The notes under the pieces: model-generated
Told to the model about the DNA's origin: nothing
Seen by the model: only the letters and a program-made list of their open reading frames with translations
Databases searched by the model: none
Shown: positions 1 through 34,531 of the stretch, in pieces
Numbering within the stretch: the stretch's first letter is position 1
How the letters are laid out: every line of letters begins with the position of its first letter
Assembly (NCBI GenBank): GCA_029260875.1
Contig: JAJDCL010000011.1
Coordinates: forward strand, 62,401 to 126,400
Length of the DNA stretch: 64,000 nt
Reading direction: 5' to 3'
Source: Candidatus Saccharimonadota bacterium
GTDB taxonomy: Bacteria > Patescibacteriota > Saccharimonadia > Saccharimonadales > OFTM59
Translations under genes and position numbers: made by a program

Positions 1-2
1 AA

Positions 3-338
3 CTGGAACATTACGAGCAACTTATAAAGGTCGCAAACCATAACATTCAAGCTAATACTAAGGAGTTAGAGCGTCTTAAAGTCAGCTTGCCAACCGAGCA
101 AGAGTTCTACGAACTTACTAATTCGTATCTGTCAGACCTACTAAACACGACTGATTTAATGGAACAGGACGCAATATGCAACGAGCTAGTGTTGAACCTA
201 CGAGCGAGCAACGATTCCGTATCTGTTATAAAACTAAATCCACCATACAATTTGCTGGTGGATTTAGCTGAAATATCTACTGGTCGGGGTGAAAGGACTC
301 GAACCTTCGACCTCCGCGTCCCAAACGCGGCGCGCTAG
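3..338 (+). CDS. 3'-terminal part of an ORF that enters from the left edge of the window; product unknown
   Basis: The frame starting at nt 3 is open to the stop at 336-338. The ORF track only shows the Met-initiated 87..338 fragment. The tail overlaps the tRNA-Pro on the opposite strand, so the true stop or extent is uncertain. Confidence 0.25.
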   Translation: MEHYEQLIKVANHNIQANTKELERLKVSLPTEQEFYELTNSYLSDLLNTTDLMEQDAICNELVLNLRASNDSVSVIKLNPPYNLLVDLAEISTGRGERTRTFDLRVPNAAR

Positions 339-357
339 CCAACTGCGCCACACCCCG
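281..357 (-). tRNA. tRNA-Pro (anticodon TGG)
   Basis: The reverse complement reads CGGGGTG-TG-GCGC-AGTTGGCTA-GCGC-G-CCGCG-TTTGGGA-CGCGG-AGGTC-GAAGG-TTCGAGT-CCTTT-CACCCCG-A-CCA. This is a full cloverleaf with a 7 bp acceptor stem, GTTCGAGT T-loop, anticodon loop TTTGGGA and an encoded CCA. Confidence 0.9.
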
Positions 358-416
358 ATAATCTAAGTTAAGTTACGAGGGGGATTATAGCGGATAACAG
401 AGAAGAATGCTAGAAG

Positions 417-1454: not shown

Positions 1455-1564
1455 AAGAGCACTTCCTTAGGTAATTGTTAATACTTATGGGGTAATAATA
1501 CCATAACAACACTTATGCCTATAGCCCAATCACAATAATTACTAGATAGTAACAAGGGTGTCTC

Positions 1565-2623
1565 CTAGTAACCAGTAGCTCTGAGCGCTAAAATTTGTAG
1601 GTCCCGCGCTTCATCTGCAAGTTGGCAAACTGTATCTGACCCACGGCTCACATGAACGCCTGTAGCCTGTTCAAACATAATCATACGATCAGCTTCATTA
1701 GGGTTGCCGCTGTCAAAGGCTGCCATTAGTGGCGCAACAACCACACCTTTAGGGCCAGCAATAAATTTGCCACTTTGATACGTGCCGCACACTTCAGCCT
1801 GAGCCGTGGGGATCTTAGCCAAAGCGCTTGGTTGGTTAGTATCAAAAAGGCTCAGGCCACCCCCCATCCACTCACCGTACACAGGGTTGCCGTCAGAACC
1901 GTTGCCCATAAATATATTATCTCCAGGCGACGGGGAATTAGAGGCTACAAAAACGGATTTGCTTTTTATAAACTCAGTATCTGATCCCTCTACTAGACTC
2001 AGCACGGCTAGGTCTGTATCTTCATTTTGACGTATGGACACAGCAATTTTGTTAATCATGATTGCGCGTGTACCAGGAGCTGACACTGCATATTCAAATT
2101 TGTCTGGTAGGTCTTGGGCAATGTCGGCTACATCATTATTGCCAGCTTGTCTTAAACGGTCACGTATAGGCTGTGTTACTCGATTAACTCCTGTTTGCTT
2201 ATCCGTATACGGTTCAGAATCAAATGTATGAGCTGAGGTACCAATAACATACATGTCACCAACCTTATCGTCACTAACTCGTAAGGCTGCACCCTTACCG
2301 ATGTTCTGCCAAACCTTTGCCCCTTTTGACCGAGCCAGCACATCCACTGTAGCACTGGTTAAGTTGTCTCTAATCTCTTGAGAGACCTCGACCGCTTCAG
2401 AAGCAGATTCATGCATATTCTCATGAATAGTCTCTTGCCGTGCTGGTACATCCGCCACAACACTAGGCTTTAAAGCAAAAGCCAAGACTCCTACAGCCGC
2501 CAGAGCAAGCACGTTACGACTAACCCTACTTGTTAAACGTCTGTACTCGGGCCTTTCTATTGAGTGCCTAGGTTTATGTTTTTTATCTTGGTTTTCATCG
2601 GAAATACCGATTCTTCCATCCAT
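1565..2623 (-). CDS. N-anchored hypothetical exported protein, possibly a degenerate trypsin-like fold
   Basis: The N-terminus has a basic tail and a TM (NVLALAAVGVLAFAL). GTSAHTF, DLAVLSL and GNGSDGNPVY loosely resemble the His, Asp and GDSGGP segments of chymotrypsin-family proteases, but with a non-canonical Ser region. Confidence 0.35.
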   Translation of the reverse strand: MDGRIGISDENQDKKHKPRHSIERPEYRRLTSRVSRNVLALAAVGVLAFALKPSVVADVPARQETIHENMHESASEAVEVSQEIRDNLTSATVDVLARSKGAKVWQNIGKGAALRVSDDKVGDMYVIGTSAHTFDSEPYTDKQTGVNRVTQPIRDRLRQAGNNDVADIAQDLPDKFEYAVSAPGTRAIMINKIAVSIRQNEDTDLAVLSLVEGSDTEFIKSKSVFVASNSPSPGDNIFMGNGSDGNPVYGEWMGGGLSLFDTNQPSALAKIPTAQAEVCGTYQSGKFIAGPKGVVVAPLMAAFDSGNPNEADRMIMFEQATGVHVSRGSDTVCQLADEARDLQILALRATGY

Positions 2624-2678
2624 ATAGATATATTAGCATAAGCTTTACTAAAAGTCAAGATTAGAATATGTAGTTGGT

Positions 2679-4412
2679 TTACCATGTGCCCCAGCGCTGG
2701 TTGCTGGCACCTTTGAAGCAGTCCCAGATCTGTAAGTCTGTCCCGTTTGCAGTGTCATTATCCTTTACATCCAGGCATTTACCTGTAGCGCTTGAACGGA
2801 TAGTGCCATCACTATTCCATTGCCAGCGTTGGTGAGAACCACCATTACACGTGTAGATTTGCACATCTGAGCCGTTCCTGGTTTTGCCCCCTTCCACTTC
2901 AAGACATAGTCCACTAGCAGCAAGTCGGATCGTGCCATCAGTTGCCAAGCCCCACTTTTGATTGGAGTTACCTGTGCAGTCCCAGATCTGAGTATCTTTA
3001 CCTCTAGTTGTTCCGTCGGCGTCCATACAGCGACCACTGGCGTGACTTCTTATTACATATTGTGCAACTGCGGGAGGTTTATCGGTAGACGAAGAGGCCT
3101 TGGTTGTCGTAGTTTTTCCGTCAGGAGTAGTTGTGGTGCAAGTGCCATTCTTGCAAGATGTTTTGGTAGAGCCACTGTAGCTGGTGCCTTGGGACTGGCC
3201 CCCTATAGAAACCCCGCCCTGTGAACCCTTAGAGCCTTGTGAGCCACTCGTGCCAGATGTGCCTGAAGCACCCTGTGAGCCAGGAGCCCCAGGTGAACCG
3301 GGCGAGCCTTGAGTAGCTTTACCGGGGTTGCTAGCACCAGGCTGGCCAGGATTGCTCGCGCCAGGCTGACCGGCCTGACAGCCACCAACACAATTACTAG
3401 ATCCAGACTGACCGGGAAGTCCAGGTTGAGGAGCAGGTATCGGACGGCCAGCACCGATTATATCTTCCAGGGCACCGCCACCGCCAGCTTCCTCTAGGTC
3501 TACAATCTTATTGAACTCTGCCCACGTTGCGGCGCCCACTTTACCGTCACAGGTCCACCATGTTGTGGGCGCTCCCAATACGCATTTAGACCCGGGAACG
3601 CTGCGGTTATACTGCATAAATCGCACAAGATCGGCAGTCCGGCCATCATATATGCCCGTTTGAGGGACATTTTCAAGACCCATAACATTCTTTAAGAAGC
3701 CTTGTAGCACCTTGACGCACGGGTGGCTTGATCTATGATCAAGCGTCACTCTGCTGCATGTAGTCATGTTCCAGCTAGTTGGAGCGCTACTTGAGAGGGT
3801 CTGTGAGGGAGCACCAGAACCACTGCCCCCGACCGGTGTACAGGATGAATAGGAGCGTCCGGGATTTATGGGTGCACCGTTTTTTCGTATCTCAAAATGT
3901 AAATGGGCAGGCCCAGCTCCAGTTTCACCAGAATATGCAATTAGTTCCCCTTCGGAAACAGACCCAGTTTTTGCAATGCTACTTAGGTGCGCAAAACGAA
4001 ATGTATAGTTTCCAGATGTCAGGTCTGCCGATATACCATAACCTCCGTCCGGGCCCCTGCTAACAGTACCACTCCTGGGGGCGAAAATAGGCGTGCCGAC
4101 TGTAACGCCCGCACTGTTCGCGCCAAAATCAACACCTGCATGTTTACGACCATTGGGTCGGCCAGCTCCAAAACCGCCACCGTTATAATCTGTATTATTG
4201 CTATGTGCGGGCTTACCTTTTAACGGACATGTCATTGCAACTGTTTCTGCACGGCTAACATAAACCGTGGCAACACCAATAACAGCAAACAAGGTTATAT
4301 AAGCCAGCTTACGGATTCCTAAGGGCAATCCTTTCAGCATCAATAGACCCATAATTGATTGTCTGCTAGTTGAACGACTAATGGTTGTTTTGCGCTTGAT
4401 TTTGGGAGACAT
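2679..4412 (-). CDS. N-anchored M23/LytM-family metallo-endopeptidase fused to a collagen-like Gly/Pro/Ser spacer and a C-terminal ricin-B lectin domain
   Basis: The M23 signature is HAGVDFGA...G.PI.A...G.V...............HLHFEI. The middle has GQPGASNPGQPGASNPG collagen-like repeats. The C-terminus has repeated QxW beta-trefoil motifs (NQKWGL, HQRWQW, NQRWGTW). Confidence 0.8.
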   Translation of the reverse strand: MSPKIKRKTTISRSTSRQSIMGLLMLKGLPLGIRKLAYITLFAVIGVATVYVSRAETVAMTCPLKGKPAHSNNTDYNGGGFGAGRPNGRKHAGVDFGANSAGVTVGTPIFAPRSGTVSRGPDGGYGISADLTSGNYTFRFAHLSSIAKTGSVSEGELIAYSGETGAGPAHLHFEIRKNGAPINPGRSYSSCTPVGGSGSGAPSQTLSSSAPTSWNMTTCSRVTLDHRSSHPCVKVLQGFLKNVMGLENVPQTGIYDGRTADLVRFMQYNRSVPGSKCVLGAPTTWWTCDGKVGAATWAEFNKIVDLEEAGGGGALEDIIGAGRPIPAPQPGLPGQSGSSNCVGGCQAGQPGASNPGQPGASNPGKATQGSPGSPGAPGSQGASGTSGTSGSQGSKGSQGGVSIGGQSQGTSYSGSTKTSCKNGTCTTTTPDGKTTTTKASSSTDKPPAVAQYVIRSHASGRCMDADGTTRGKDTQIWDCTGNSNQKWGLATDGTIRLAASGLCLEVEGGKTRNGSDVQIYTCNGGSHQRWQWNSDGTIRSSATGKCLDVKDNDTANGTDLQIWDCFKGASNQRWGTW

Positions 4413-4450
4413 CTGATTTATCCAGTTTATGTTAATACTTTATATATGTG

Positions 4451-5083
4451 TTATTCCGGGATGCTGACTGGAATGTCAGTAGACTGTTCGCCTGCGTCGC
4501 TTGGCACTGCATCCTCTTCGTTTGCTTCATTATTTTCTTCTGGAGCGTCGGTTGGACCCTGGTTGTCAGTATCATTCTGATTGGTTTCACTTTCAAACAC
4601 AGGAGTCTTAGGTACAGGTAAGCACGGGGCACCCCTTATGCTTCCTAGTGGTTTCCAGCAACTTTCTGAGTCTTTCCATGGTTTGCTGCCGACTTTTTGA
4701 TTATTCCAGTCTGCAATAAACTTATCGTCCTGTATATTACTTGGTGCTAGACGGGCTTCACTGAAACCTCCATAATTGTTCCAGTCTTTATCATTATAGT
4801 CATATGCTCCGCCTGGTCTTTCATAACTGTGCTCGCCCCAAACGCCGTCACCACTTTCACATGCTCTTACTCTTCCAATCCAGTAACCGGCATTCCCCCA
4901 GTAACCTGGCTTGGATGCGGCAAAGGTTGTGAAAACAAGGTAACTACCAAGCATTGCGAAACCAAGTACAAAGAATAATGTTAACTGCTGTTGACGCAAT
5001 TTCTTACCTGTTAGCCAGTTTTTTACAGCACCTTTTTGACTATTTGTATTACGCATCTGGCGAGATTTTTGTGTCTTTTTCAT
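4451..5083 (-). CDS. N-anchored protein with an Rpf/transglycosylase-like (CESG) motif
   Basis: The internal Met start MKKTQKSRQ at 5083 is preceded by aggaa and avoids overlap with the upstream gene. The protein has a basic tail plus TM. RACESGDGVWGEHSYERPGGAYDYNDKDWNNYGG resembles the CESGGNW...YGG core of resuscitation-promoting-factor lysozyme-like domains. Confidence 0.4.
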   Translation of the reverse strand: MKKTQKSRQMRNTNSQKGAVKNWLTGKKLRQQQLTLFFVLGFAMLGSYLVFTTFAASKPGYWGNAGYWIGRVRACESGDGVWGEHSYERPGGAYDYNDKDWNNYGGFSEARLAPSNIQDDKFIADWNNQKVGSKPWKDSESCWKPLGSIRGAPCLPVPKTPVFESETNQNDTDNQGPTDAPEENNEANEEDAVPSDAGEQSTDIPVSIPE

Positions 5084-5096
5084 AAATGTTCCTGTT

Positions 5097-5744
5097 CTAG
5101 GTATCTCTCTCGTAGATACAGGTTTTAAGAAGCTCGCTACTGTTGTTAATGTCGAAGTGCTCACCGTAAGTTTCTCCGAAATCTTCATCATCCATGACGG
5201 CGGGATCACGCGTAATCGGAGTAGTAGAAGCTGGTTGAGCAATTTCAGAATCCTGATCGTTATTGCTGGCGCCTGTATTATCTGGTGATAATGCAGTTTT
5301 GTTAGCTACAGCTTGCCGATCACCTTCTGGAAGACTGGCTATGAATTGCTCTTCTGCGCTTCCAAAAATTGTTGCGTCCGGTAACGACTTACGAGCATCT
5401 GAATCTGGAACGGGCAAAAGCACTGGTTGCACCCATTCAGGGCTGCTTTTTCCCCTGCCTACAATAAAATTTAGGCGGTTGAATGTATCGCTGGCCCTTA
5501 AGCCAAAACGCTCACGAAGGCTTTCTCCCCTTGAATCAAGCGCCGAGCGACTGTCCGAGTTGGCGCCATAGTTGCTGGGAGCAAAGAATGTCATGACCAT
5601 ATAAATCCCTACGAGGCCCACAACAACCACCAACACGGAAGATAGTTGATATTTGCGGGAATGCCTAAGACGTCTGATGAGGTTTTCAGAAACGCTATAC
5701 TGTTGTTTTGACATCTTTTTCCTGGTAGTTTTTTTCATATTCAC
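5097..5744 (-). CDS. N-anchored hypothetical protein (basic tail plus TM, acidic C-terminus)
   Basis: The N-terminus is MNMKKTTRKKMSKQQ...LSSVLVVVVGLVGIYMVMTFF. It has the same anchoring architecture as its neighbours. Confidence 0.5.
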   Translation of the reverse strand: MNMKKTTRKKMSKQQYSVSENLIRRLRHSRKYQLSSVLVVVVGLVGIYMVMTFFAPSNYGANSDSRSALDSRGESLRERFGLRASDTFNRLNFIVGRGKSSPEWVQPVLLPVPDSDARKSLPDATIFGSAEEQFIASLPEGDRQAVANKTALSPDNTGASNNDQDSEIAQPASTTPITRDPAVMDDEDFGETYGEHFDINNSSELLKTCIYERDT

Positions 5745-5834
5745 AAACTGTTCCTGTGTCAGCTTGTTATTTTGGCCTGGTTTCAGTTATAGGCGCTTAT
5801 GCTTCGGGTGTCAAGACCCAGAAGATATCAGACA

Positions 5835-6302
5835 TCAACGACTCACTGAGCCACTTGGCGCGCTTGGGGCGCTTGGGGCACTAGATTGGCCTGTAGTACC
5901 GGGAGAGCTTGGAGCCCCGGGAGAGCCCGGTGTCCCTGGCGAACTAGTACCCGGGGTGCCGCTACCAGGCGTACCGGGGGTGCCCGTGCCATTGCTACCA
6001 GAGGTGCCGTTACAACCGCTGCCCGTACAGCTACCACTACCACCCGCACCGCCTGAACCGCCGTTAGTGCCTGGTTGCCCAGGGGCACCATTACTACCGC
6101 CACTAGTAGGGGCAGGTGGGCACAAACTGGCTGCCAGTACGCTAACCACAAAATACAAACCGATTAATGCAAAAGCTGTTACAAAAAGAGCCTTTTTGGG
6201 CGATTTTTTAAGACTTGCAGTAAAACGCGACAGATTCTTGCTTGACCCTGCGGTGGTTTTACGACGATTTGACGTGGTCTTCTCTATGCTTTTTTTAGCC
6301 AT
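5835..6302 (-). CDS. N-anchored Gly/Ser/Thr/Pro-rich collagen-like low-complexity surface protein
   Basis: MAKKSIEKTTSNRRKTTAGSSKNLSRF...ALFVTAFALIGLYFVV, followed by GAPGQPGTNGGSGGAGGSGSCTGSGC and an SSAPSAPSAPS tail. It shares the GGAGGSGSCTGSGC block with 417..1454. Confidence 0.55.
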   Translation of the reverse strand: MAKKSIEKTTSNRRKTTAGSSKNLSRFTASLKKSPKKALFVTAFALIGLYFVVSVLAASLCPPAPTSGGSNGAPGQPGTNGGSGGAGGSGSCTGSGCNGTSGSNGTGTPGTPGSGTPGTSSPGTPGSPGAPSSPGTTGQSSAPSAPSAPSGSVSR

Positions 6303-6303
6303 T

Positions 6304-7017
6304 TTATAATCCTGCCCAGCCCGACACCCTAGTGTTTATTGTCTGAATAACAGCCATAATGCCGTTGGTTCGTGGGCATAGAGCATTACCGGAAAAACCG
6401 CTATCGCCACTAACACCACCCGTACCTGACTGACCGCTAGCACCACTTGTGCCACCATTACTTGAGCCCGGGTTACTAGCGCCTGTATTACCGTTAGTCC
6501 CTGTGCCACTGGCGCCGGGGCTACTACTGCAGTTGGCGCCTGAACATGTTCCACTGCTACTTGTACCGTTTGCGCCACTGTTTGATTGACTAGACTGGCC
6601 TGTGCCTGATGAGCCGGCTGAGCCGCTTGTACCGCTAGTGCTAGTGCCAGCATTACCACTACCTGCTTGTCCGTCGGTTCCTGTTCCTGGTTGACCAGGT
6701 TGCCCTGTGCTTGTACCCGTTCCGTCCTGACCATCCTGCCCGTCCTTTACGAGTTGGGTCTGACCAGTGGTTTTATTAATGCCAGCCAAGTTACTGAAAA
6801 AGCCACCAATACGCTCGCGGACGCTCAGACTTTGGTTGCCTTCCGAGCCAGAGGTTAGCGAGCTAACTTCGTTGGCCGATTGATAAGCAGCGACAGACGA
6901 GATGATCAAGTAAATGCCAAGTGCGGCAACAGCAAACATAATGAACGTCGCCTTATTGCTGTTAGAACCTCGACGGTTGACCGAAAGTTTAGGAGAATTC
7001 TTTGATGTTTTTTTCAT
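6304..7017 (-). CDS. N-anchored Gly/Ser/Thr-rich low-complexity surface protein
   Basis: MKKTSKNSPKLSVNRRGSNSNKATFIMFAVAALGIYLIISS, then DGQDGQDGTGTSTGQPGQPGTGTDGQAGSG collagen-like repeats. Confidence 0.55.
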   Translation of the reverse strand: MKKTSKNSPKLSVNRRGSNSNKATFIMFAVAALGIYLIISSVAAYQSANEVSSLTSGSEGNQSLSVRERIGGFFSNLAGINKTTGQTQLVKDGQDGQDGTGTSTGQPGQPGTGTDGQAGSGNAGTSTSGTSGSAGSSGTGQSSQSNSGANGTSSSGTCSGANCSSSPGASGTGTNGNTGASNPGSSNGGTSGASGQSGTGGVSGDSGFSGNALCPRTNGIMAVIQTINTRVSGWAGL

Positions 7018-7134
7018 GTATGACAGAACTATTGATCCCTAAGATTTGTGAGTTTTAATATCACTTGCATTAACTTATATGCGCTTATGTTTATGATGTC
7101 AACGCGATTTGTACTGGACTAATGATCTAAAACC

Positions 7135-7710
7135 TTAACGACAAGAGTTACTACTACCGCCACTGGCGCCGTTACTGCCACTTGCGCCATTGCCACTACT
7201 ACTCGCACCGCCCGCGCCGTTGGTGCCATTACCGCCATTGCCACTACTACCCGCGCTGCCATTAGAGCTGCCGGTTCCGGGTTGACCCGGGGAGCCGTTT
7301 GTAGCTGCAAACGTGCTAGCGCCACACACACCGCTATTTTGCTTGTTTTGCTGCTTAAAGGCATCTTTTGTTCGGTCGTATTCAGCATCGTTTCTGTCTT
7401 TTAATGCATCGGCTTCTGATTTGCAAAGCTTTTTTCGCGTCCTGTCATCTATAGTCTTGCATTGGGCTTTCTTTGCGTCTTCTGCTGCTTCATGACGATC
7501 TTCCATACGTTGAAGCTCGGCCTTTTGGGCACTTGTTAAAGAGGCTGCTTCTGAAGTCATAACCAAAATACTACCAAGCACAGCAAAAAGCAGTACCAAA
7601 ATTAACATGCGCTGCTTGCTGGATAAGGCGCGGATTCTATCCACTAGCCCTTTAGGTTTTTTATCTGATACTCTGTTTTTCCGTGCACTAGCAGATTTTG
7701 ATTTCGCCAT
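7135..7710 (-). CDS. N-anchored coiled-coil and Gly/Ser/Asn-rich surface protein, paralog of 417..1454 lacking the lectin
   Basis: The start MAKSKSASARKN at 7710 follows ttaaggaaaattacgta. The protein has a TM (MLILVLLFAVLGSILVM), a Cys-pair coiled coil (AQKAELQRMEDRHEAAEDAKKAQCKTIDDRTRKKLCKSEADALKDRNDAEYDRTKD) and a G/S/N tail. Confidence 0.55.
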   Translation of the reverse strand: MAKSKSASARKNRVSDKKPKGLVDRIRALSSKQRMLILVLLFAVLGSILVMTSEAASLTSAQKAELQRMEDRHEAAEDAKKAQCKTIDDRTRKKLCKSEADALKDRNDAEYDRTKDAFKQQNKQNSGVCGASTFAATNGSPGQPGTGSSNGSAGSSGNGGNGTNGAGGASSSGNGASGSNGASGGSSNSCR

Positions 7711-7831
7711 TACGTAATTTTCCTTAATTTTTGTTTGGTTCACTTATCGTGTAGACATAAGCTTATTCCGAGTGCACCTACCGTGTCAACCCAATGGCTT
7801 TCATTTTATAACCAGACTAAGTAGATTACTG

Positions 7832-8311
7832 CTAAATTGACTTACAAGTTTTAGTGCCATTTTTTGTCGTGCAAACTGTCCCTGTGGAGGGGGCGCTAGG
7901 GGCTGAGGGGGCGCTGGGGGCGCTGGATTGACCAGGCGCACCAGGAGCTGAATTGCTGCCGTTGCTGCCGTTACTACCAGGGGCCGTTTTCACATCTTCT
8001 CCTCGGCCGTCTGTGCCTGGCTGACCCGTTGAGTCTTTACCTGACGTACCGCTGCAATTATTGCTGCTGCTTACAACGCAAGTATTGTCCGTCCCTGTGG
8101 CACCATCCGCGCCTTTACCGTTTAGCCCTTCAGGTGGGGGGCATAGTGCAAGAGCGCCAATCACTAGTAACGTACCGGCCGCTGCAAAACCCAGAATGAA
8201 TAATGATTTTTTAGGTGAGCGCCTAGCCCATAATCCTACACGCTGCAAACGACTGGTAGGTTTAGTTGTTTTAGGTTTCTTGTAGCTTGTTTTTGTTGGT
8301 CTTTTTGCCAT
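7832..8311 (-). CDS. N-anchored Gly/Ser/Thr-rich surface protein
   Basis: MAKRPTKTSYKKPKTTKPTSRLQRVGLWARRSPKKSLFILGFAAAGTLLVIGALALCPPP. It shares the C-terminal SSAPSAPSAPSAPS block with 5835..6302. Confidence 0.5.
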   Translation of the reverse strand: MAKRPTKTSYKKPKTTKPTSRLQRVGLWARRSPKKSLFILGFAAAGTLLVIGALALCPPPEGLNGKGADGATGTDNTCVVSSSNNCSGTSGKDSTGQPGTDGRGEDVKTAPGSNGSNGSNSAPGAPGQSSAPSAPSAPSAPSTGTVCTTKNGTKTCKSI

Positions 8312-8313
8312 GA

Positions 8314-9543
8314 TTATCTACCTATAAAACCCATTAATCTTGTATACATAAATTCACCCAGTGCCGTAACCCCGGTTGTTTTAGGACACAGAGCTTTTTT
8401 TGCCTTACTATTGCTGTTACTCCTGGACCCCCCGCTTAACGTACTCGAACTAATAAGGCTGCGGGGAGGCCCACCCGAATCATACATCGGCTTATTATTA
8501 ACTAAGGGTCTGCCGCCTTTGCAGTCAGTGTTTAAACAGTCATTATAAAGTTGAAAAATTGTTTTTCCAGTTATACTTTTCAGAAGCTCGTCAGAATATG
8601 TGTCATTTCTGAGGGCAGTGTGTAGTTTCTTGACAATATTTTTATCGTGTTTTGTGAGATATTTTAGAAAGGCCGCCCCACAATCGTAACCAGAGCTATA
8701 GTCTACATCAAAGCAAGAGCTAGTACGATCTACACCCAATACTTGTGGCACATAATCCGCCATTCCTTCAACTAGCCACTTTGGATATTGAGGTGTTCCG
8801 TACGATTTATAGCTCTGCACCATGTGTGTTATTTCATGACTCAATAGACGCGTATTCGAGCTATCACTAAATGTGCGCACCGTGTCAATGTCAAGATAGG
8901 CCGCTGCTCGATCCCAGTAGAACACGCAGCCTATCGCCCCCTCGCAAAGTTTTTCGCCTGTTTTAAAATTTGGAGGCAGATAGCTAAAGCTGTAGTCATC
9001 AGCGAGTTTGCCTAGGATAATAATGTATGGTGATCGATAAATAGAAGAGCTGAGCTGTTGTTCTACTCTCGGAAATATATTCTTGCAGTTTGCAAGAAGC
9101 TTCTCCGCTTTAATCTTCATGCTAAGATCTTGGCTATAATCAACCCAGCACATTCCGTTATCAATGACTCCTGGTTTACCCGGCATAACAGGGTCATCTA
9201 CCACAACAGTGCCCGGTGTTTGTTTTGAGGCTGGGCTGGCATTGCCTGGAGCGCCACCTCCTTTATTTGAGCCACTGACGGTGAGCGTAGAATTGTTCTT
9301 GCTTGCCTCAGAAGTCTTCTTTTGCCAAGGCAAGGTTACCTTTTTGCCAAAAAACGTAAACCCGTATTGATTTGCGCCAGCAGTGCTAGACCACAAGGAA
9401 GAGACAATCATATAGCCACCTAAAAACATAAAAGCGAGAGCCACAAAAACAACACTACGCTGCCTAAAGCTAGTCCTTAGATTTCTAAGTTTCTGGGATT
9501 GTGAATAGCTGAATGGTTGGTTGGCGAATCTTTTGTTGGCCAT
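8314..9543 (-). CDS. N-anchored putative zinc metallopeptidase of the basic-secretory-protein (BSP, PF04450-like) type
   Basis: HEITHMVQ (HExxH) followed by WLVEGMADYV, then GYDCGAAFLKYL and LLKSITGKTIFQLYNDC match the BSP-family pattern HE.THV.Q...EG.ADYV...GY...A.FL.Y. The N-terminus has a basic tail plus TM. The start at 9543 is preceded by aaaaagggtcaaa; the alternative start is 9573. Confidence 0.55.
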   Translation of the reverse strand: MANKRFANQPFSYSQSQKLRNLRTSFRQRSVVFVALAFMFLGGYMIVSSLWSSTAGANQYGFTFFGKKVTLPWQKKTSEASKNNSTLTVSGSNKGGGAPGNASPASKQTPGTVVVDDPVMPGKPGVIDNGMCWVDYSQDLSMKIKAEKLLANCKNIFPRVEQQLSSSIYRSPYIIILGKLADDYSFSYLPPNFKTGEKLCEGAIGCVFYWDRAAAYLDIDTVRTFSDSSNTRLLSHEITHMVQSYKSYGTPQYPKWLVEGMADYVPQVLGVDRTSSCFDVDYSSGYDCGAAFLKYLTKHDKNIVKKLHTALRNDTYSDELLKSITGKTIFQLYNDCLNTDCKGGRPLVNNKPMYDSGGPPRSLISSSTLSGGSRSNSNSKAKKALCPKTTGVTALGEFMYTRLMGFIGR

Positions 9544-28152: not shown

Positions 28153-28173
28153 GCTCAGGGTCCGTCCTTGTGC
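28153..28173 (+). repeat. REP-like motif (left flank of the Y1 transposase)
   Basis: gctcagggtccgtccttgtgc. The core GGTCCGTCCTTG recurs at 28820 and, inverted, at 59457. Confidence 0.6.
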
Positions 28174-28800
28174 ATATACTTAGATATGCCTGGAAAGAAT
28201 ATTATTAAGCATTACGGTGCTGAGCAGTATTATCATATTTATTCTAGAGGGGTTGCTAAGCAGGCGATTTTTCTGGACGATGATGATTATTCCTATCTCT
28301 TGAGCATTTTGAAACGATATATTTCGCGTAAACCCGCACAACAGCCTGGCCACGGCGTTTATCCTCATTACGGAGAACGGCTAACGCTTTTGGCATATTG
28401 TCTTATGCCCAGCCACGTTCACCTACTCGTATACCAAAAAGACCGGCAGGCAATGGCCGAGTTCATGCGTAGCATGATGACAAGCTATAGTATGTATTTC
28501 AACCGAAAATATAAGCGTGTTGGCCCAGTATTTCAAAGCCGCTATAAGGCAAGTCGTATTACCCAAGATAGTTACCTGGAGCATATCTCTCGCTACATTC
28601 ATCTTAACCCAAATAATTGGGTTAATTATCCTTATTCAAGTCTTAAATACTATCTGGGTAATGCAAGGGCTGAATGGATTAGACCAAACAGTATAACCGA
28701 ACTGTTCCCCTCTCCCCAACAATACCTAGAGTTTGTGCAAGACTACGAAGGTCATAAGCAAATGCTGGATGAGATACACTGGGAATTAGCCGATCAATAA
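28168..28800 (+). CDS. IS200/IS605-family Y1 (HuH) tyrosine transposase, RAYT-like
   Basis: YCLMPSHVHLLVY is the HuH motif. YHIYSRGVAKQAIF is the N-terminal beta-strand pattern. RYIHLNPNNW is the catalytic Tyr helix (COG1943-like). Confidence 0.75.
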   Translation: MCIYLDMPGKNIIKHYGAEQYYHIYSRGVAKQAIFLDDDDYSYLLSILKRYISRKPAQQPGHGVYPHYGERLTLLAYCLMPSHVHLLVYQKDRQAMAEFMRSMMTSYSMYFNRKYKRVGPVFQSRYKASRITQDSYLEHISRYIHLNPNNWVNYPYSSLKYYLGNARAEWIRPNSITELFPSPQQYLEFVQDYEGHKQMLDEIHWELADQ

Positions 28801-28819
28801 ATTACGCTTGCTCAAGAAT

Positions 28820-28840
28820 GCTCAAGGTCCGTCCTTGAGC
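28820..28840 (+). repeat. REP-like hairpin motif (right flank of the Y1 transposase)
   Basis: GCTCAAGG-tccgt-CCTTGAGC has a perfect 8 bp stem and the same core as 28153..28173. Confidence 0.65.
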
Positions 28841-28881: not shown

Positions 28882-29364
28882 TTATGTGTTGGGTTGGCGT
28901 TGCATGCTGTGACAGATAGCTGTAGCAAGTGCGTCAGCACAATCATCTGGCGTTGGCACGGTTGTTAGGCCCAACACTACACGAACCATCTCTTGCATTT
29001 GCTTTTTGTCTGCTCGTCCATACCCTGTTAAAGCTTGCTTGATTTGCAATGGTGTATATTCAAAGATTTTCATATTATGCTTCATTCCCAGCAACAAAAC
29101 TACCCCACGAGCTTGCGCTACAGTCATTGCAGTCGTAACATTTTGCGCGAAGAAAAGCTTTTCCACCGCCATTACATCAGGTTTTAATTCTTGAATTACT
29201 TGCTTAAGTTCATCATAGATAATCAGCAGTCTTTCGGCGTCCGGATGTTTAACTGGTGTTCTTATGACCCCAGCGTCAAGCAGCGTCGCCTTGCTATTCG
29301 GTGCCACATCAATAACCCCAAACCCCAGAATCCCTGTCCCTGGATCAATTCCAAGTATATGCAT
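28882..29364 (-). CDS. ruvC: Crossover junction endodeoxyribonuclease RuvC
   Basis: MHILGIDPGTGILGFGVI and an RNase H-like fold with catalytic D/E positions. Confidence 0.9.
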   Translation of the reverse strand: MHILGIDPGTGILGFGVIDVAPNSKATLLDAGVIRTPVKHPDAERLLIIYDELKQVIQELKPDVMAVEKLFFAQNVTTAMTVAQARGVVLLLGMKHNMKIFEYTPLQIKQALTGYGRADKKQMQEMVRVVLGLTTVPTPDDCADALATAICHSMQRQPNT

Positions 29365-30095
29365 CAGTTTTCCAGTAATTCTTCAGGGATATCGAAGTTG
29401 GTGTGAGTGGCTGATACGTCGTCTATGAGTTCGAGCGCATTCATGAGGCGCATGATTTTACCGGCAGTTTCTTTGTCACTAACTTCTATGGTGTTATCTG
29501 GCACGAATGTCAGCTCGGCTTCTAAAACTTCTATACCAGCTTCCCGCAGAGCATCACGAACCTTGGCCAGGTCTTTTGGGCCAGTATAAATAACTGATTC
29601 TTCGCCTTCTTCTTCCATGTCTTCAGCGCCAGCGTCTATAGCCTGAAGCATTAGGTCATCGCCCTTGCCTTTGACGCGGATCATTCCTTTTTGATCGAAC
29701 TGAAATGCAACCGCCCCTTTTTCGGCCATATTGCCACCATGCTTAGAAAATGCCAGCTTAACCTCCGGATACGTACGGTTAACATTATCGGTAGCACACT
29801 CAACCATAATCGCCACACCCCCTGGACCATAGCCCTCATACATCACTTCCTGAATCTGTTCACCGCCCAGCTTGCCACTACCGCGGTCAACTGAACGCTG
29901 TATGTTGGCCATTGGCATATTGGCGGCTTTAGCCTTATCAATCGCCAGCCGCAGCGTAAAGTTCATTTCCGGGTCAGCACCGCCCCGAGCAGCAACTGCT
30001 ATGACATTACCAAGCTTCGTAAAAACCGCACCGCGCGCCGCGTCTTTGGCACCCTTCTGCCGCTTAATGGTTGACCACTTGCTGTGTCCAGACAA
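29364..30095 (-). CDS. yebC: YebC/PmpR-family transcriptional regulator
   Basis: MSGHSKWSTIKRQKGAKDAARG is the YebC signature. The yebC-ruvC linkage is conserved. Confidence 0.9.
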   Translation of the reverse strand: MSGHSKWSTIKRQKGAKDAARGAVFTKLGNVIAVAARGGADPEMNFTLRLAIDKAKAANMPMANIQRSVDRGSGKLGGEQIQEVMYEGYGPGGVAIMVECATDNVNRTYPEVKLAFSKHGGNMAEKGAVAFQFDQKGMIRVKGKGDDLMLQAIDAGAEDMEEEGEESVIYTGPKDLAKVRDALREAGIEVLEAELTFVPDNTIEVSDKETAGKIMRLMNALELIDDVSATHTNFDIPEELLEN

Positions 30096-30109
30096 CGCTT
30101 AAACTCCTA

Positions 30110-31573
30110 CTATTCAATAATATTCTTATCTGTAATGGTACCATATTTGGCCCTCACCTTGCGAGCAAGCACCAACATGCAGACAAGTATCAGGCCGTAT
30201 GCCAACAACATCCCGGTCAAGGACAAGTTAAGCTCAACCTTTGCGTATGGTATACGCGAAAACAGGTTCACCACATCAAGCATATAGGTCATAAGGATCA
30301 CTCCGGGCCAAGCAAAGATACCCGACAAAACGGGCGCCAACATACCACCTACCCCCGCGATCACTGAAAACATCATGGCAAACGGTACAAGGGGCACGAT
30401 CACAGCATTACTAGCCAGGGCTATTAAAGAAGTCTCGCTAAAGATGTAGAGAATCACAGGAGTAACCATAATTTGAGCTGATATGCTTTCTATCACAACT
30501 TGACCCAAGAATTTTTGTTCTTTCATACCAAACATGCGGATCTTTAAAAGAGGGGCTAGAATCAGGACGCCAAAAAACGCCAAAAACGAAAGGCGCCAAC
30601 CTATGTCAGACCATAGATAAACTGGGTTCCAGGCAGCAGTCATTGCTGCCGCTAGAGATATTAACAGCAACGGCTTAAACTTTCTGCCGTAATACCAAGC
30701 CGCCAAGCTTAAACTGGTGACTATTGAAGCCCTTACTATAGAGGCGCTAAAACCAGTCAGCAGCAAGAAGCCCGCCATAAGCACTAGCGAAAGTACAGTT
30801 GATTGATACTTAGAAAGTCGGTTCAACTTACGCCGCACACCCCTGATGATTATAGTCAAGTTGTAGCCAGAAACCGCTATGATATGTGTCAGCCCAACGA
30901 TAGACAATTGCTCGCTCAGATCATCGGGCAAGGTAGTTCTTTGACCTATAAGAATGCCTAGGCCGAACGACGCAAGCGGTTCTGGGAGCGCAGTCTGCAT
31001 ACCCGCTACAAACTTTCGTCGTATAGATTCAACTAATGAGCCACTTCTGCCTACTATCCGAATTTCCGCAAAGCTAATCCTGCCCTGCCGAGCGCCGCCA
31101 GTCGGGTACATCTTGCCACTCACCTCTACAATATCACCCCTGTATACTATCGGCACGCCGCGACCACGGATCTGGAGTTTTCCTGACAATTTTAGGTTTG
31201 TTGGCTTTAAGATTTCTACATGCGACGCATCAAACTCCAACTGTCCGCCATCTGCATAAACTGCATCCGAATCGGCTTGGACGCTGACCGTTAACTCTTC
31301 TCCGTACAGCGTTTCGTATGGCTGAAGTTTATTTAAATATGCCTGCCCCCGCAATATCCCACCGCTGACTCCAAGCAGTAAAGCTGAGGCTAGCAGTATC
31401 AGCGCTTTTCGTCTCCAACTAAAATCAAACATCATAGTTGCGAACAGTAACCAAACTACGTGTAAATCACTACCGCTGCGGGCTAAAGCTAGTCCGGCCA
31501 AAAAGCTCACAAACGTTATAGTAAATATCGTAGTACGTCTAAAACGTATTTTCAGCTTTACATTATTAACCAT
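30110..31573 (-). CDS. comEC: ComEC/Rec2-family competence membrane channel (no beta-lactamase domain)
   Basis: Polytopic membrane protein with the competence-domain motif GLTHIIAVSGYNLTII and an N-terminal DUF4131-like region. Confidence 0.6.
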   Translation of the reverse strand: MVNNVKLKIRFRRTTIFTITFVSFLAGLALARSGSDLHVVWLLFATMMFDFSWRRKALILLASALLLGVSGGILRGQAYLNKLQPYETLYGEELTVSVQADSDAVYADGGQLEFDASHVEILKPTNLKLSGKLQIRGRGVPIVYRGDIVEVSGKMYPTGGARQGRISFAEIRIVGRSGSLVESIRRKFVAGMQTALPEPLASFGLGILIGQRTTLPDDLSEQLSIVGLTHIIAVSGYNLTIIIRGVRRKLNRLSKYQSTVLSLVLMAGFLLLTGFSASIVRASIVTSLSLAAWYYGRKFKPLLLISLAAAMTAAWNPVYLWSDIGWRLSFLAFFGVLILAPLLKIRMFGMKEQKFLGQVVIESISAQIMVTPVILYIFSETSLIALASNAVIVPLVPFAMMFSVIAGVGGMLAPVLSGIFAWPGVILMTYMLDVVNLFSRIPYAKVELNLSLTGMLLAYGLILVCMLVLARKVRAKYGTITDKNIIE

Positions 31574-31782
31574 TAATTAATACAGTTTATCCTAAATTGA
31601 CTTTTCTCTGTAAATACGGATAATGTAAGGAGTTATTTTTGGTTATGCCAGAAGTGCGCTTTCCAAAATTTCAAACTAAGCCAAAGGTTGTTTGGAATTT
31701 TGAGAGGAGGAAGCGACTAGAAGGTGAAGTAAGACAAAAATATTGTTTTTGTCTTACGTAAGCTGACCGTCGATTCTGACGA

Positions 31783-31859
31783 GGGCCGTTAGCTCAGCTG
31801 GTTAGAGCACCTGCCTTTTAAGCAGGGTGTCCCGGGTTCAAGTCCCGGACGGCCCTCCA
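31783..31859 (+). tRNA. tRNA-Lys (anticodon TTT)
   Basis: GGGCCGT-TA-GCTC-AGCTGGTTA-GAGC-A-CCTGC-CTTTTAA-GCAGG-GTGTC-CCGGG-TTCAAGT-CCCGG-ACGGCCC-T-CCA. A complete cloverleaf. Confidence 0.92.
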
Positions 31860-31941
31860 ATTTGACCTTACAGATGACCCTAGTGGGAAAGTCTGAACTA
31901 AAGAGCCAGAAGTGGTTCTTTTTGTTTGCTATCATTAGGCT

Positions 31942-32349
31942 ATGAAACTATTTTGCTCAAATGCGTTCACTGGCGAAGATTTTGAAACGGTCAGTCGGCG
32001 GATGCAATTAGTGGTTGATGCTCTGAATAAATCAGGACATGCAGCCTATTGTCCCATATTTGACCCGCGTAAAATAGAATTGCAAGAACGGCAAGCTGCC
32101 AAAGAGATATTTGATTATGCCTTTCAGAACTTAGCTAAATGCGATGGTATGATAGCAATCGTTACTTCTGACAGAAAAAGCGAAGGTCAGCTAATGGAAA
32201 TTGGAGCAATCCTCGCTGCCAATAAGCCTTTGTATCTATTTGTTCACGATTCAGCAAGAAAGGCTCCTTCACATTTGCATAAACTAGCCGCAAAAGTTTA
32301 TATTTGGTCGTCAGACGAAGACTTAGCTAATAAGCTGGCTAATATATAG
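31942..32349 (+). CDS. Hypothetical protein, possibly with a nucleoside 2-deoxyribosyltransferase-like fold
   Basis: MKLFCSNAFTG...MEIGAILAANKPLYLF loosely fits the PF05014-like pattern. The stretch is visibly AT-rich. Confidence 0.3.
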   Translation: MKLFCSNAFTGEDFETVSRRMQLVVDALNKSGHAAYCPIFDPRKIELQERQAAKEIFDYAFQNLAKCDGMIAIVTSDRKSEGQLMEIGAILAANKPLYLFVHDSARKAPSHLHKLAAKVYIWSSDEDLANKLANI

Positions 32350-32367
32350 CGGCTTATTTAGAGCTAA

Positions 32368-32400
32368 TTTAGTTGCAATAGTTTGCACCTTGCTCCTCCA
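32368..32400 (+). repeat. 33 bp direct repeat, copy 1 (immediately 3' of the gene ending at 32349)
   Basis: tttagttgcaatagtttgcaccttgctcctcca is identical to 33009..33041. Confidence 0.8.
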
Positions 32401-32465
32401 CGGATGAACCTAGTTGAACTACTGCAACTAACCATTACAGTAGTTTTTCATTTATAATCAACGAT

Positions 32466-33005
32466 ATGAAACCACGCTTTGTATATATTCACGGAAATCA
32501 GTCAACTCATTGGTCATTCGCGTGGGCTACATGGTTAAAAAATGAACTCGAGAAACTAGGCTATGAGACTTTCTTTGAGACGATGCCTGATTCTATCATT
32601 GCTCGCTCCGAGTATTGGCTTCCTTTCTTAAAAGACCACGTTAAAGTCGGAGAGATTGACGTTATAGTCGGCTGGTCATCTGGAGCGGTAGCTGCCATGC
32701 GTTACGCAGAAGAAAATAAGCTTCTCGGCTCCATTTTAGTTTCGCCCTGTTATACGGACTTGGGCGACGACATGGAAAAACAAAGCGGCTACTATGATAA
32801 GCCCTGGAAATGGGATAGCATCAAATCAAACCAGAAGAAAATAGCTCTATTCTGGGGCGATGATGACCCTTATATTCCGCAGTCAGAGTTTAAGTTTATT
32901 GCAGAGCAATTAGCGCCAGAACAAATAAAAGTAGCTGTTGGAAAGCATTTTGTTGAACAATCGGAATTCCCCGAAGTTCTGCAATATATAAAGCAGAATT
33001 ATTAG
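32466..33005 (+). CDS. YdeN/RBBP9-family alpha/beta serine hydrolase
   Basis: YIHGNQSTHWSFAWATWL (HG...HW motif), nucleophile elbow VGWSSGA (GxSxG), and C-terminal Asp/His segments. Confidence 0.65.
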   Translation: MKPRFVYIHGNQSTHWSFAWATWLKNELEKLGYETFFETMPDSIIARSEYWLPFLKDHVKVGEIDVIVGWSSGAVAAMRYAEENKLLGSILVSPCYTDLGDDMEKQSGYYDKPWKWDSIKSNQKKIALFWGDDDPYIPQSEFKFIAEQLAPEQIKVAVGKHFVEQSEFPEVLQYIKQNY

Positions 33006-33008
33006 CTA

Positions 33009-33041
33009 GTTTAGTTGCAATAGTTTGCACCTTGCTCCTCC
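33009..33041 (+). repeat. 33 bp direct repeat, copy 2, followed by a 16 bp-stem hairpin at 33040..33078
   Basis: An identical 33-mer, then ccatataaaagatcta/taggtcttttatatgg. Confidence 0.8.
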
Positions 33042-33343
33042 ATATAAAAGATCTACCCTGCGTAGGTCTTTTATATGGTTGTCTTGGTCGACTTGAACCC
33101 TTGACAGAGATTTTTCTTTAGAAAAATATCGTAGTCGTGAATCGGCGGAGCGAAAGCACACGCAAGTACTTGCACCGAGCATGATTGAGCGGAGAAGGCC
33201 TAAAGCCGCTGTCCCACTGGCCTTACAGTGTAATGACCTCACTGCTAAGTGGGGTCTTTTCATTGGGCCAGAGGCTTGCCTGAAAGAGATAAAAGCCTTA
33301 AGCTTAGTGTGAAGATTTTAATTTAACAATAAAGGAATTCTAC

Positions 33344-33553
33344 ATGTCATTCTTTTCAAAGCTTTTTGGCAAAAAATCTAATAATTCTGCAGCCCCAAGT
33401 GCAGATGTTACACCAACACAAACATTTACTGAACCGCCTGCAACTCCGGTCACGCCACCACAACCCATACCAACACCGTTAGAGCAATCAGAACCGCAAA
33501 TTCCAGAGCAAGACGAAACTCCAGGCCAAACACCACTCGCGCCAAGTGCCTAG
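33344..33553 (+). CDS. Small Pro/Thr-rich hypothetical protein
   Basis: aaaggaattctacATG precedes the start. The composition is low-complexity (PPATPVTPPQPIPTP). Confidence 0.25.
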   Translation: MSFFSKLFGKKSNNSAAPSADVTPTQTFTEPPATPVTPPQPIPTPLEQSEPQIPEQDETPGQTPLAPSA

Positions 33554-34029
33554 TGATTCTTACTGTGTCCGCGTGAGCGATTCGTGGCCCAAAGGGTAAC
33601 GAGTTGAATAAATACTACTGCACCTACAATTGCCTCGCTACCCTCAAGCAAGCGCTGTCCAGCGTGTATACTACGCACTTCTTGCTGCAAACCTTCCGGT
33701 AGTAGGGGCAACGCAAATGCAGCCAGCACAAAACCAGTTATTAAAAACGGAATTATGTAAAGAAAGAGTCTCCCCTTACTCAATGTGTTGCGTAAAAAAA
33801 CAGCAGTCAAAATAACCGGCACCAATAAAAGCGCAAGTTCTGAATATGCCAGCACCGATTCTCGCCTAGTTACGAGCCTGGTTACTAGCTCTGTATCGTC
33901 ACTAAAGTAACGGGCCAATAACTCGCCAGCCAGCATACTGAAAAATAGGTATGAAGAATTAACCCTGAAAATAATGCCGAGCAACAGCGGCAACCCTAGG
34001 ACTATGCCCAGAATAATATAAGCAACCAT
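33550..34029 (-). CDS. Polytopic hypothetical membrane protein
   Basis: Internal start MVAYIILGIVLGL and about four TM segments. Confidence 0.4.
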   Translation of the reverse strand: MVAYIILGIVLGLPLLLGIIFRVNSSYLFFSMLAGELLARYFSDDTELVTRLVTRRESVLAYSELALLLVPVILTAVFLRNTLSKGRLFLYIIPFLITGFVLAAFALPLLPEGLQQEVRSIHAGQRLLEGSEAIVGAVVFIQLVTLWATNRSRGHSKNH

Positions 34030-34051
34030 ATGCCAATAATAGCATAAGGGT

Positions 34052-34531
34052 TTAGAGGGGCAGGTATTGTCCCGTGAACAAGCCAGCCTTATCGGCTGTT
34101 CCCGCCAAAACCTCCACAACAAACTTTCCGTCTGTGCAAAAAGTTTCAGGATAGGTTTCTGGACCTACGTTTTTCTTTATACTCACAATCTTTCCCCTTT
34201 CATTAAGCCAGATAATGTCTAAACTTAAATGCATATCTTTCATCCACATACACTGCTTAGCGGACTGGTCAAACACGAAAAGCATGCCTTGGGTCGGCGC
34301 CATGTTTTTCCGGTCAGAAAGACCCTGTACTCGTAAAGCCTCTGACTCAGCCTTTTCTAAAACAACACATGTGGTTTTGGGTGGCCTCATTGTGTCGGGG
34401 ATTTTAAAGGCACAGTTTTCGCCGTACCTGTGCGTAAAGTTCAAGTAAGCATACAGCCCGACAGTACCAACCGCCAAGCTAATAAGTATTATGGAAACAG
34501 CTGCGTTATTAGCTTTCTTCCACCCAAGCTT
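34052..34531 (-). CDS. DUF192 (COG1430) domain protein
   Basis: MLFVFDQSAKQCMWMKDMHLSLDIIWLNERGKIVSIKKNV...FVVEVLAG is the DUF192 signature. The start MKLGWKK at 34531 abuts the rimK stop. Confidence 0.6.
   Translation of the reverse strand, partial: KLGWKKANNAAVSIILISLAVGTVGLYAYLNFTHRYGENCAFKIPDTMRPPKTTCVVLEKAESEALRVQGLSDRKNMAPTQGMLFVFDQSAKQCMWMKDMHLSLDIIWLNERGKIVSIKKNVGPETYPETFCTDGKFVVEVLAGTADKAGLFTGQYLPL

Follow-up and report, generated by a model that had tools for sequence, protein, structure and literature searches.

The tRNA-Lys locus and its repeat

Within a 64,000-nucleotide (nt) stretch of a Candidatus Saccharimonadota genome (contig JAJDCL010000011.1, positions 62,401 to 126,400 of the forward strand, assembly GCA_029260875.1), referred to here as the window, a gene for tRNA-Lys(UUU) is followed directly by two small open reading frames (ORFs), each of which ends shortly before a copy of the same 33-nt repeat. 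The repeat is considered here as a probable half of the attachment site of a large serine recombinase (LSR), and the two genes as probable cassettes that lack a recombinase of their own. An initial annotation, made from the letters alone, had placed a deoxyribosyltransferase-fold gene and a serine hydrolase gene immediately 3' of the tRNA, an assignment borne out by matches to PF05014 and PF06821; exact-protein look-ups returned no record for either protein. The features of the locus are as follows.

31783-31859, + strand: tRNA-Lys(UUU)
31839-31859, + strand: last ~21 nt of tRNA-Lys, ...GGCCCTCCA, a proposed bacterial (B) attachment half-site
31860-31941, + strand: trailer, ATTTGACCTTACAGATGACCCTAGTGGGAAAGTCTGAACTAAAG, the left end of cassette 1 and a proposed P'-type arm
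31900-31921, + strand: terminator hairpin of the trailer
31930-31935, + strand: -10-like TATCAT, 6 nt before the ATG of ORF1
31942-32349, + strand: ORF1, cargo of cassette 1, a nucleoside 2-deoxyribosyltransferase-like protein of 135 amino acids (aa) (Nuc_deoxyrib_tr, PF05014, E 8e-13)
32368-32400, + strand: site copy 1 (31-nt core 32370-32400), proposed P half-site with the common core CCTCCA
32369-32431, no strand: attP-like dyad, one arm in copy 1 and the other in the left end of cassette 2
32401-32465, + strand: left end of cassette 2, which aligns collinearly with the trailer once the first 12 nt of the latter are left out
32417-32449, + strand: hairpin AACTACTG...CAGTAGTT with a T-run in the left end of cassette 2, from folding
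32453-32458, + strand: TATAAT, 7 nt before the ATG of ORF2
32466-33005, + strand: ORF2, cargo of cassette 2, a YdeN/RBBP9-type serine hydrolase of 179 aa (Ser_hydrolase, PF06821, E 2e-6)
33010-33042, + strand: site copy 2, closing the array distally as a proposed attR-like P half-site
33040-33078, + strand: terminator hairpin of 17 pairs whose base pairs CCA with TGG, the proposed displaced native flank of the tRNA (B' side)

The identical 33-mer, TTTAGTTGCAATAGTTTGCACCTTGCTCCTCCA, which had been reported shortly 3' of each ORF, is indeed present on the + strand as two exact copies, 18 nt after the stop codon of ORF1 and 4 nt after that of ORF2. The 64 kb window has no third copy, even with up to three mismatches allowed, and 100 shuffles yielded no copy at all. 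Similarity between the copies extends in the 5' direction to 60 nt at 83% identity (32341-32400 against 32983-33042) and stops sharply at CCA. The hairpin noted after the second copy was recovered as a stem of 17 pairs that takes in the CCA of the repeat. The islet had also been described as AT-rich; its GC content is lower than the window mean (0.410 against 0.458), but the effect is weak, lying only at the 5.7th percentile of windows of the same size. The 31-nt core of the repeat, TAGTTGCAATAGTTTGCACCTTGCTCCTCCA (the 31-mer), folds into a 5-bp hairpin of -5 kcal/mol (z = -1.46), the centre of which is ~19 nt from CCA, the distance found in a T-arm. Searches of the window region and related loci against Rfam, both at the gathering thresholds and at E<=10, returned tRNAs only. 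The dyad at copy 1 has arms TTAGTTGCAATAGTT (32369-32383) and AACTACTGCAACTAA (32417-32431), which match at 14 of 15 positions and lie at +/-17-31 around their centre, the A of CCA at base 32400.

Distribution of the repeat and its link to tRNA-Lys

In a scan that covered prokaryotes with a single genome for each species, a 22-mer taken from the 3' portion of the repeat matched seven loci in six other species of Candidatus Saccharibacteria, all represented by metagenome-assembled genomes. Among these loci the flanks on both sides are unrelated and the 31-nt core is identical. The 5' 20-mer of the repeat, scanned against metagenomes, identified 11 loci, in eight of which the 11 nt at the 3' end, which had not been selected for, are exact, the other three differing by 1 nt. 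Of 21 copies of the 31-mer across species, 17 are identical, and the identity holds in at least eight species whose neighbouring proteins are only 40-80% identical.

The sites are tightly linked to tRNA-Lys, which lies upstream on the same strand, at a distance of 195-2239 nt, in 15 of 18 loci, the other three being truncated. In the genome with two copies, one site follows tRNA-Lys(UUU) and the other tRNA-Lys(CUU), so that the element is tied to tRNA-Lys itself and not to a particular neighbourhood. The initial annotation had raised the alternative of a terminator-like element common throughout the genome; instead, the element occurs once or twice per genome and only by tRNA-Lys, with a single match in the 730 kb contig CAVSRJ010000001.1 and a pair of matches in one genome, and it is thus not a dispersed repeat. 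A literature search found no published description of this tRNA-Lys locus in Saccharibacteria.

Junctions, occupied sites and an empty site

The last bases are ...CCCTCCA in all tRNA-Lys genes at these loci and ...CTCCTCCA in the element, so that the 31-mer shares with the tRNA only its six terminal bases, CCTCCA. This hexamer closes tRNA-Lys, the 31-mer and all variants of the site, and every break in homology falls directly after it. The site variants (loci L004, L008, L017 and L023) retain TTAGTTGCAA on the left and CCCTCCA on the right. The trailer is found after the CCA of tRNA-Lys itself (window, L001, L019), after the CCA of a 21-nt tRNA-Lys 3' fragment forming the tRNA-like end of an element here called U (L004, L009, L008, L017) and after the CCA of the 31-mer (L012, L019), with a version shorter by 12 nt after copy 1 of the window. 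The 21-nt copy of the tRNA 3' end, running from the T-loop to CCA, sits at the end of element U and not at cassettes. A CCA...TGG hairpin lies directly after tRNA-Lys in L005, L006, L009, L014 and L020 and also after the last site in most arrays, with no terminator after the site in L002 and L007. A cassette-free tRNA-Lys is followed by the same type of terminator hairpin as is found at the end of an array.

Relatives do not have identical content at this locus, which would have spoken against insertion: different genes are present, and one relative is empty. The empty state, in L020, consists of tRNA-Lys, a tRNA-derived non-coding block (U1) that ends in the 21-nt tRNA fragment, the hairpin and a further block (U2), with neither cargo nor 31-mer. 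Compared with L020, L009 carries a 456-nt insert, comprising trailer, ORF and 31-mer, exactly after CCA and between the end of U1 and the hairpin. The flanks of the two loci are 73% and 59% identical, compared with 44% for a control.

Cassette structure and cargo

The units follow a single plan, in which the trailer (ATTTGACCTTACAGATGACCCTAGTGGGAAAGTCTGAACTAAAG and its terminator) is succeeded by a TATAAT-like box, by one ORF in most units, and by the 31-mer. The box lies 6-10 nt before the ATG, with no Shine-Dalgarno sequence, and its position is kept in both window cassettes (31930-31941 and 32453-32465) and in L001, L004, L009, L012, L017, L019 and L023. This arrangement suggests that the cassette genes would yield leaderless mRNAs. 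There is overlap between the promoter region of a cassette and the terminator of the unit before it.

The genes between tRNA and site vary from genome to genome and lie on either strand; in L005 and L006 the site-adjacent gene has the opposite orientation. Among the cargo are NDT-like, Ser_hydrolase, MazG-like, SET, DUF1653, YHYH, AAA_33 kinase, PNPOx and GNAT proteins, together with two cytidine deaminases, NUDIX, HAD hydrolase and GGACT proteins and several orphans. No recombinase is found among the genes between tRNA-Lys and a canonical site. The same kinase cassette is present in L008 and L017, where both the preceding cassette and the following sequence differ.

Large serine recombinases at the same junction

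The initial annotation had proposed looking for a cognate integrase elsewhere. None was found in the window, but LSR genes are present at the same junction in four other genomes (L024, L027, L028/L029 and L030), in a set enlarged by fetching further genomes anchored on the membrane-protein gene beside the locus. In all four the LSR elements abut the CCA end of tRNA-Lys, and the LSR genes converge on the tRNA gene with ORFs that run into its 3' end. In L024, for example, a 558-aa protein with Resolvase and zinc-ribbon recombinase domains is encoded convergently with tRNA-Lys (6898-8580, - strand), and its ORF stays open until it is past the tRNA 3' end in antisense. The proteins have the full LSR architecture of Resolvase, Recombinase and Zn_ribbon_recom domains (E 3e-16, 9e-8 and 8e-7 in protein P0032, all above the Pfam cut-offs); R13 and S15 of the N-terminal YxRxS motif are invariant, and the best match in the PDB is the A118 integrase. 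In L028/L029 the LSR element (1-7677) carries DISARM-like cargo, namely DrmE_C, a NERD/helicase protein and a large DEAD-box helicase.

The family has more than 2000 homologues. A tail translated from the antisense of a tRNA 3' end (WRAxxDSNPRHPA) is present in 98 of the 120 homologues listed, and a further 14 of the 120 stop just after WRA. Judged by this tail, targeting of this tRNA end is a trait of the family. Four homologues read past WRA into the antisense of site-like sequence instead of tRNA; the tail of P0046, WRAVCKTIATKL, may be compared with the antisense of the window site, WRSKVQTIATKL. Such tails are what an unintegrated attP, or a tandem junction, would be expected to give. As a separate matter of annotation, the last ~13 residues of the LSR (WRAQWDSNPRHPA and variants, in most of P0026-P0145) are encoded antisense in the adjoining tRNA-Lys gene; the annotated C-terminus therefore changes with the state of integration.

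One of these elements, in L027, spans 9.7 kb between the tRNA CCA and a variant form of the site, TGGTTGCAACAGCGATACAAACAGCCCTCCA, which is followed by a trailer and more small genes; TGGTTGCAACAGCGATACAAACAGCCCTCCA is the only such site inside the element. Its cargo includes a distant relative (27% identity) of the ORF2 protein of the window.

Proposed route of cassette insertion

The reading favoured here, with a probability of roughly two in three, is that the 33-mer comprises the element-side (P) half-site and common core of an LSR attachment site, and that the two window genes are tandem cassettes without a recombinase. An LSR family would integrate DNA at the 3' terminal CA of the Saccharibacteria tRNA-Lys gene, with crossover at or near this dinucleotide. 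Three parts would make up each cassette, namely the trailer as left arm (bearing its own terminator and a leaderless-type promoter), one ORF and the 31-nt site. In a circular cassette the site would abut the trailer, giving attP, and recombination of attP with attB (the 3' end of tRNA-Lys and its native terminator) would insert the cassette right after ...CCTCCA. A second insertion would then yield tRNA, trailer-ORF1-site, trailer'-ORF2-site and native terminator, in that order. With B as the tRNA end, B' as the native terminator, P as the 31-mer and P' as the trailer, the window may be written as B.P'-ORF1-P.P'-ORF2-P.B', that is, as two insertions into one attB, or as attL, cassette, attP-like junction, cassette and attR. 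The dyad at copy 1 would correspond to the P.P' junction expected between two elements integrated in tandem.

According to this proposal an LSR from a larger element of the same family would act on the 33-mer and move the cassettes in trans, the cassettes would be able to circularise and they may still be mobile. The recombinase link for the window is drawn from other genomes, where one element with two ends, four protein tails and the common junction point to it.

Several findings weigh against this reading. No recombinase gene was found in the 64 kb window or at any locus with the canonical 31-mer, each of which spans only 1-15 kb. The L027 element is the only LSR element with both ends visible, and its distal site is a variant, 26/31 identical to the L023 variant, and not the canonical 31-mer; its left 12 nt (with two mismatches) and terminal CCTCCA agree with the window site, and its middle does not. 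Dyad symmetry is weak in the attP reconstructed for L027, with GTTGC/GCAAC at about +/-23-28, and the spacing between the junction and the outer trailer motif CTGAACTAAAG varies from 22 to 34 nt. Moreover, no relatives of the site, trailer, element U or LSR were found in viral, phage or plasmid collections apart from the tRNA, so that no free form has been seen. Classical LSRs recombine attP with attB only and are not known to integrate into occupied sites, and growth of an array would therefore need relaxed specificity, regenerated attB or pseudo-attB copies. Pseudo-attB copies are present at the tRNA-Lys locus.

A broader possibility, which is more tentative and is given somewhat less than an even chance, is that Saccharibacteria possess an LSR-based, integron-like platform for gene capture, in which circular one-gene cassettes of less than 1 kb are shuffled between species in trans, by elements that encode an LSR and share the site. 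Insertion would be serial, with tRNA-Lys (at its terminal CA) and pseudo-tRNA decoys as landing points, and each cassette would carry a split attP and a leaderless-type promoter of its own.

Alternative explanations

The proposed att half-sites could be scars, the genes being what is left of larger LSR elements after internal deletion, in which case the small units would never have been mobile and the arrays would have grown by decay and occasional homologous exchange. Decay is evident at the locus, where the terminal sites of L019 and L023 have deteriorated, a deleted tRNA-end/trailer relic is present in the window (33211-33228) and fragments of tRNA-Lys are numerous, and the lack of an LSR near any canonical site would also follow. 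Nevertheless, an unconstrained scar would not be expected to stay identical over 31 nt in at least eight species while the neighbouring proteins diverged to 40-80% identity, and decay does not readily account for the trailer-ORF-site plan with its own promoter in every unit, for one kinase cassette with different right flanks in L008 and L017, or for the precision of the L009 insert relative to L020. Such an origin is consequently regarded as unlikely. It is distinctly improbable that a tyrosine integrase serves the hotspot, with integrase-less elements accreting at the tRNA 3' end as in integrative and conjugative elements (ICEs) and cis-mobilisable elements (CIMEs), and with the 31-mer as an attR-type junction made of an arm site and a displaced tRNA-like 3' end. 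The 3' ends of tRNA genes are classical targets of tyrosine integrases, a 21-nt tRNA 3' fragment is duplicated at the end of element U, and an inverted repeat of 7 bp around a 6-bp spacer, AGTTGCA-ATAGTT-TGCACCT, is present in the site. However, homology breaks at CCA and not in the ATAGTT spacer, the six terminal bases shared with the tRNA do not amount to a copy of its 3' end, a crude motif scan found no tyrosine recombinase in the window or the 18 loci, and LSRs are the only recombinases seen at the junction, in four genomes.

The initial annotation had proposed a tRNA-linked integration hotspot, or a cassette array with a recombination or termination element; the findings support this reading except as to termination, which falls to separate hairpins after the site, and the cognate enzyme is most likely an LSR and not an integrase of the integron type. 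A role of the 33-mer as RNA, either as a stability or termination element of the 3' untranslated region or as the core of a small RNA with the anti-Shine-Dalgarno sequence CCUCC, with gene turnover incidental, is a little less probable still than a tyrosine integrase. The position of the site, mostly just past a stop codon and just ahead of a strong terminator, would suit such a role, as would its CUCCUCC and its small hairpin (-5 kcal/mol). The hairpin is weak (z = -1.46), though, and there is neither a promoter motif at a fixed distance upstream nor a match in Rfam; in L005 and L006 the neighbouring gene runs the other way, L002 and L007 lack a terminator after the site, and the strict linkage to tRNA-Lys, the empty site and the LSR data would be left unexplained. 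With single genes as its units, mostly in one orientation and each with a recombination site after it, the locus also recalls an integron array with the 33-mer as an unusual attC. This is scarcely credible, as the motif scan and the annotation of neighbouring genes gave no intI-type integrase and no attI/Pc platform, the site is conserved in sequence and not in structure (with only a 5-bp hairpin), each cassette has its own promoter-like -10 box and some cargo is inverted. The original remark that the repeat is no canonical attC therefore holds.

Other candidates were considered and rejected. The 31-mer is not a tRNA remnant, since it neither folds nor aligns as a tRNA 3' end and has only CCTCCA in common with one. 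On the strand opposite the repeat, GGAGGA-N5-GTG (a Shine-Dalgarno sequence and a start) is present as originally described; the short antisense ORFs that begin there are not conserved past the repeat in the flanks of other genomes, as read by eye, and a small antisense gene was ruled out because the peptides diverge right after MQTIAT. A small RNA with its own promoter was dismissed since no -10/-35 pair is found at a fixed distance upstream. A dif/Xer site is contradicted by the lack of a GC-skew switch at the locus and by two copies far apart in one genome, and the 33-mer does not resemble dif.

Comparison with known systems

The arrays are closest in kind to those of the staphylococcal cassette chromosome (SCC) and pseudo-SCC elements, with differences in target, scale and host. 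SCCmec, pseudo-SCC and Enterococcus cassette chromosome arrays lie at rlmH (orfX) and are moved by the CcrAB LSRs, and arrays of this type contain tandem units without a recombinase that are split by direct repeats of the integration-site sequence. Insertion at the 3' end of a conserved gene, tandem recombinase-less units, direct repeats and enzymes of the LSR class are shared features. The target at the present locus, however, is tRNA-Lys and not rlmH, the units are single genes of 0.45-0.7 kb and not islands of 20-60 kb, and the hosts are Saccharibacteria. The likeness is one of layout and enzyme class.

With the large serine integrases of phages and ICEs (A118/LI, phiC31, Bxb1, TP901-1) the LSRs share the Resolvase, Recombinase and zinc-ribbon architecture, and the sites resemble theirs in their sharp bounds, in a length of about 25-30 bp per half, in a short core common to attB and attP and, at the window junction though only weakly in the attP reconstructed for L027, in a dyad around the crossover. 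They differ in that the integrase ORF continues into the tRNA gene, whose 3' end serves as the attB half, the passengers are site-bearing, non-autonomous single genes, and neither a phage nor a free form was found. Accretion of ICEs and CIMEs at the 3' end of streptococcal tRNA-Lys, and tycheposon islands at tRNA genes of Prochlorococcus, depend on tyrosine recombinases and generate repeats that copy the tRNA 3' end. Both offer a tRNA-linked hotspot, tandem integrase-less elements, att repeats and partial tRNA copies; unlike these, the repeat described here shares only CCTCCA with the tRNA, and the recombinase seen at the locus is of the serine type. Integron cassettes are likewise single-gene units that end in a recombination site (attC) and gather at one platform, but the Saccharibacteria locus has no IntI, its site is conserved in sequence, the promoter is borne by the cassette and the platform is the end of a tRNA gene.

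Saccharibacteria and other bacteria of the candidate phyla radiation have tiny genomes with few recognised mobile elements, and their gain of accessory genes is thus poorly understood. One-gene cassettes that are interchangeable at a single, conserved tRNA-Lys landing site would, if confirmed, provide a defined route of gene flow. The cargo includes enzymes of nucleotide salvage and house-cleaning, kinases and acetyltransferases, and one larger element carries a defence island. Genetic tools for Saccharibacteria are scarce, and an LSR whose attB occurs naturally in each genome of the clade belongs to the type of tool by which DNA is integrated site-specifically. The site may also serve as a simple annotation marker for the borders of strain-variable genes.

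Further features of the locus

Beyond the terminator hairpin of the window, comparison with L001 and L020 indicates a decayed relic of the U2 type, the parts of which are listed below. About 13 nt are deleted at the tRNA-end/trailer junction of this relic.

33079-33262, + strand: decayed tRNA-Lys-derived relic, 'U2' type
33090-33106: inverted T-arm fragment in the relic
33211-33228: degenerate tRNA 3' end, GTCCCACTGGCC, fused to a trailer remnant, TTACAG
33235-33256: terminator in the relic

Several of the tRNA-like sequences at these loci contain a module of constant length (~87 nt), beginning with GTGAG and ending with GTGACC, which replaces 4 nt of tRNA-like sequence. Depending on the locus, it lies in the T-loop of the tRNA-Lys 3' fragment or after the D arm of a tRNA-like 5' half. 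Examples are found in L004 (2357-2446, - strand), L005 (1912-2002, - strand), L006 (3756-3846, - strand, and 5413-5502, + strand), L009 (648-737), L014 (1673-1763), L020 (10711-10801, - strand) and L028 (11775-11864, - strand). The module folds into three hairpins, in which 19 of 35 pairs show compensatory changes in a set of only eight sequences, with one G-U pair invariant on the tRNA-sense strand. It has no match among Rfam families and could represent either a structured RNA not described before or a miniature insertion element.

An insertion sequence (IS) of a different kind is found elsewhere in the window, where a gene for an IS200-like Y1 transposase (28168-28800, PF01797, E 6e-11) lies between ruvA and ruvC and is flanked by direct copies of a hairpin, GCTCAAGG-TCCGT-CCTTGAGC (28153-28173 and 28820-28840). 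Single-strand transposition of the IS200/IS605 type was also considered for the repeat, since the hairpin-plus-tail geometry fits and the Y1 gene is 3 kb away; it was rejected because the hairpins flanking that gene are unrelated to the repeat and the gene is absent from the other loci. The Y1 gene has no match in related loci, and the region 28153-28840 is therefore probably a recent IS200-type insertion.

A promoter-like element, TTGAC(T/A)-N16-17-GATAAT followed by GTAAGGAGTTA, is conserved before tRNA-Lys in the window (31597-31640), L019, L023 and L024, and travels with the tRNA block. The neighbours of the locus are ComEC, YebC or a membrane protein, and in some genomes the block of tRNA-Lys and cassette array is inverted relative to the flanking genes (window 29364-34122 compared with relatives). 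The order is ComEC, tRNA and array, then membrane gene in the window, L006, L007 and L017, and membrane gene, tRNA and array, then YebC/ComEC in L001, L002, L011 and L008. The orientation of the block differs even between L008 and L017, despite the near-identical cassette that these two loci have in common.

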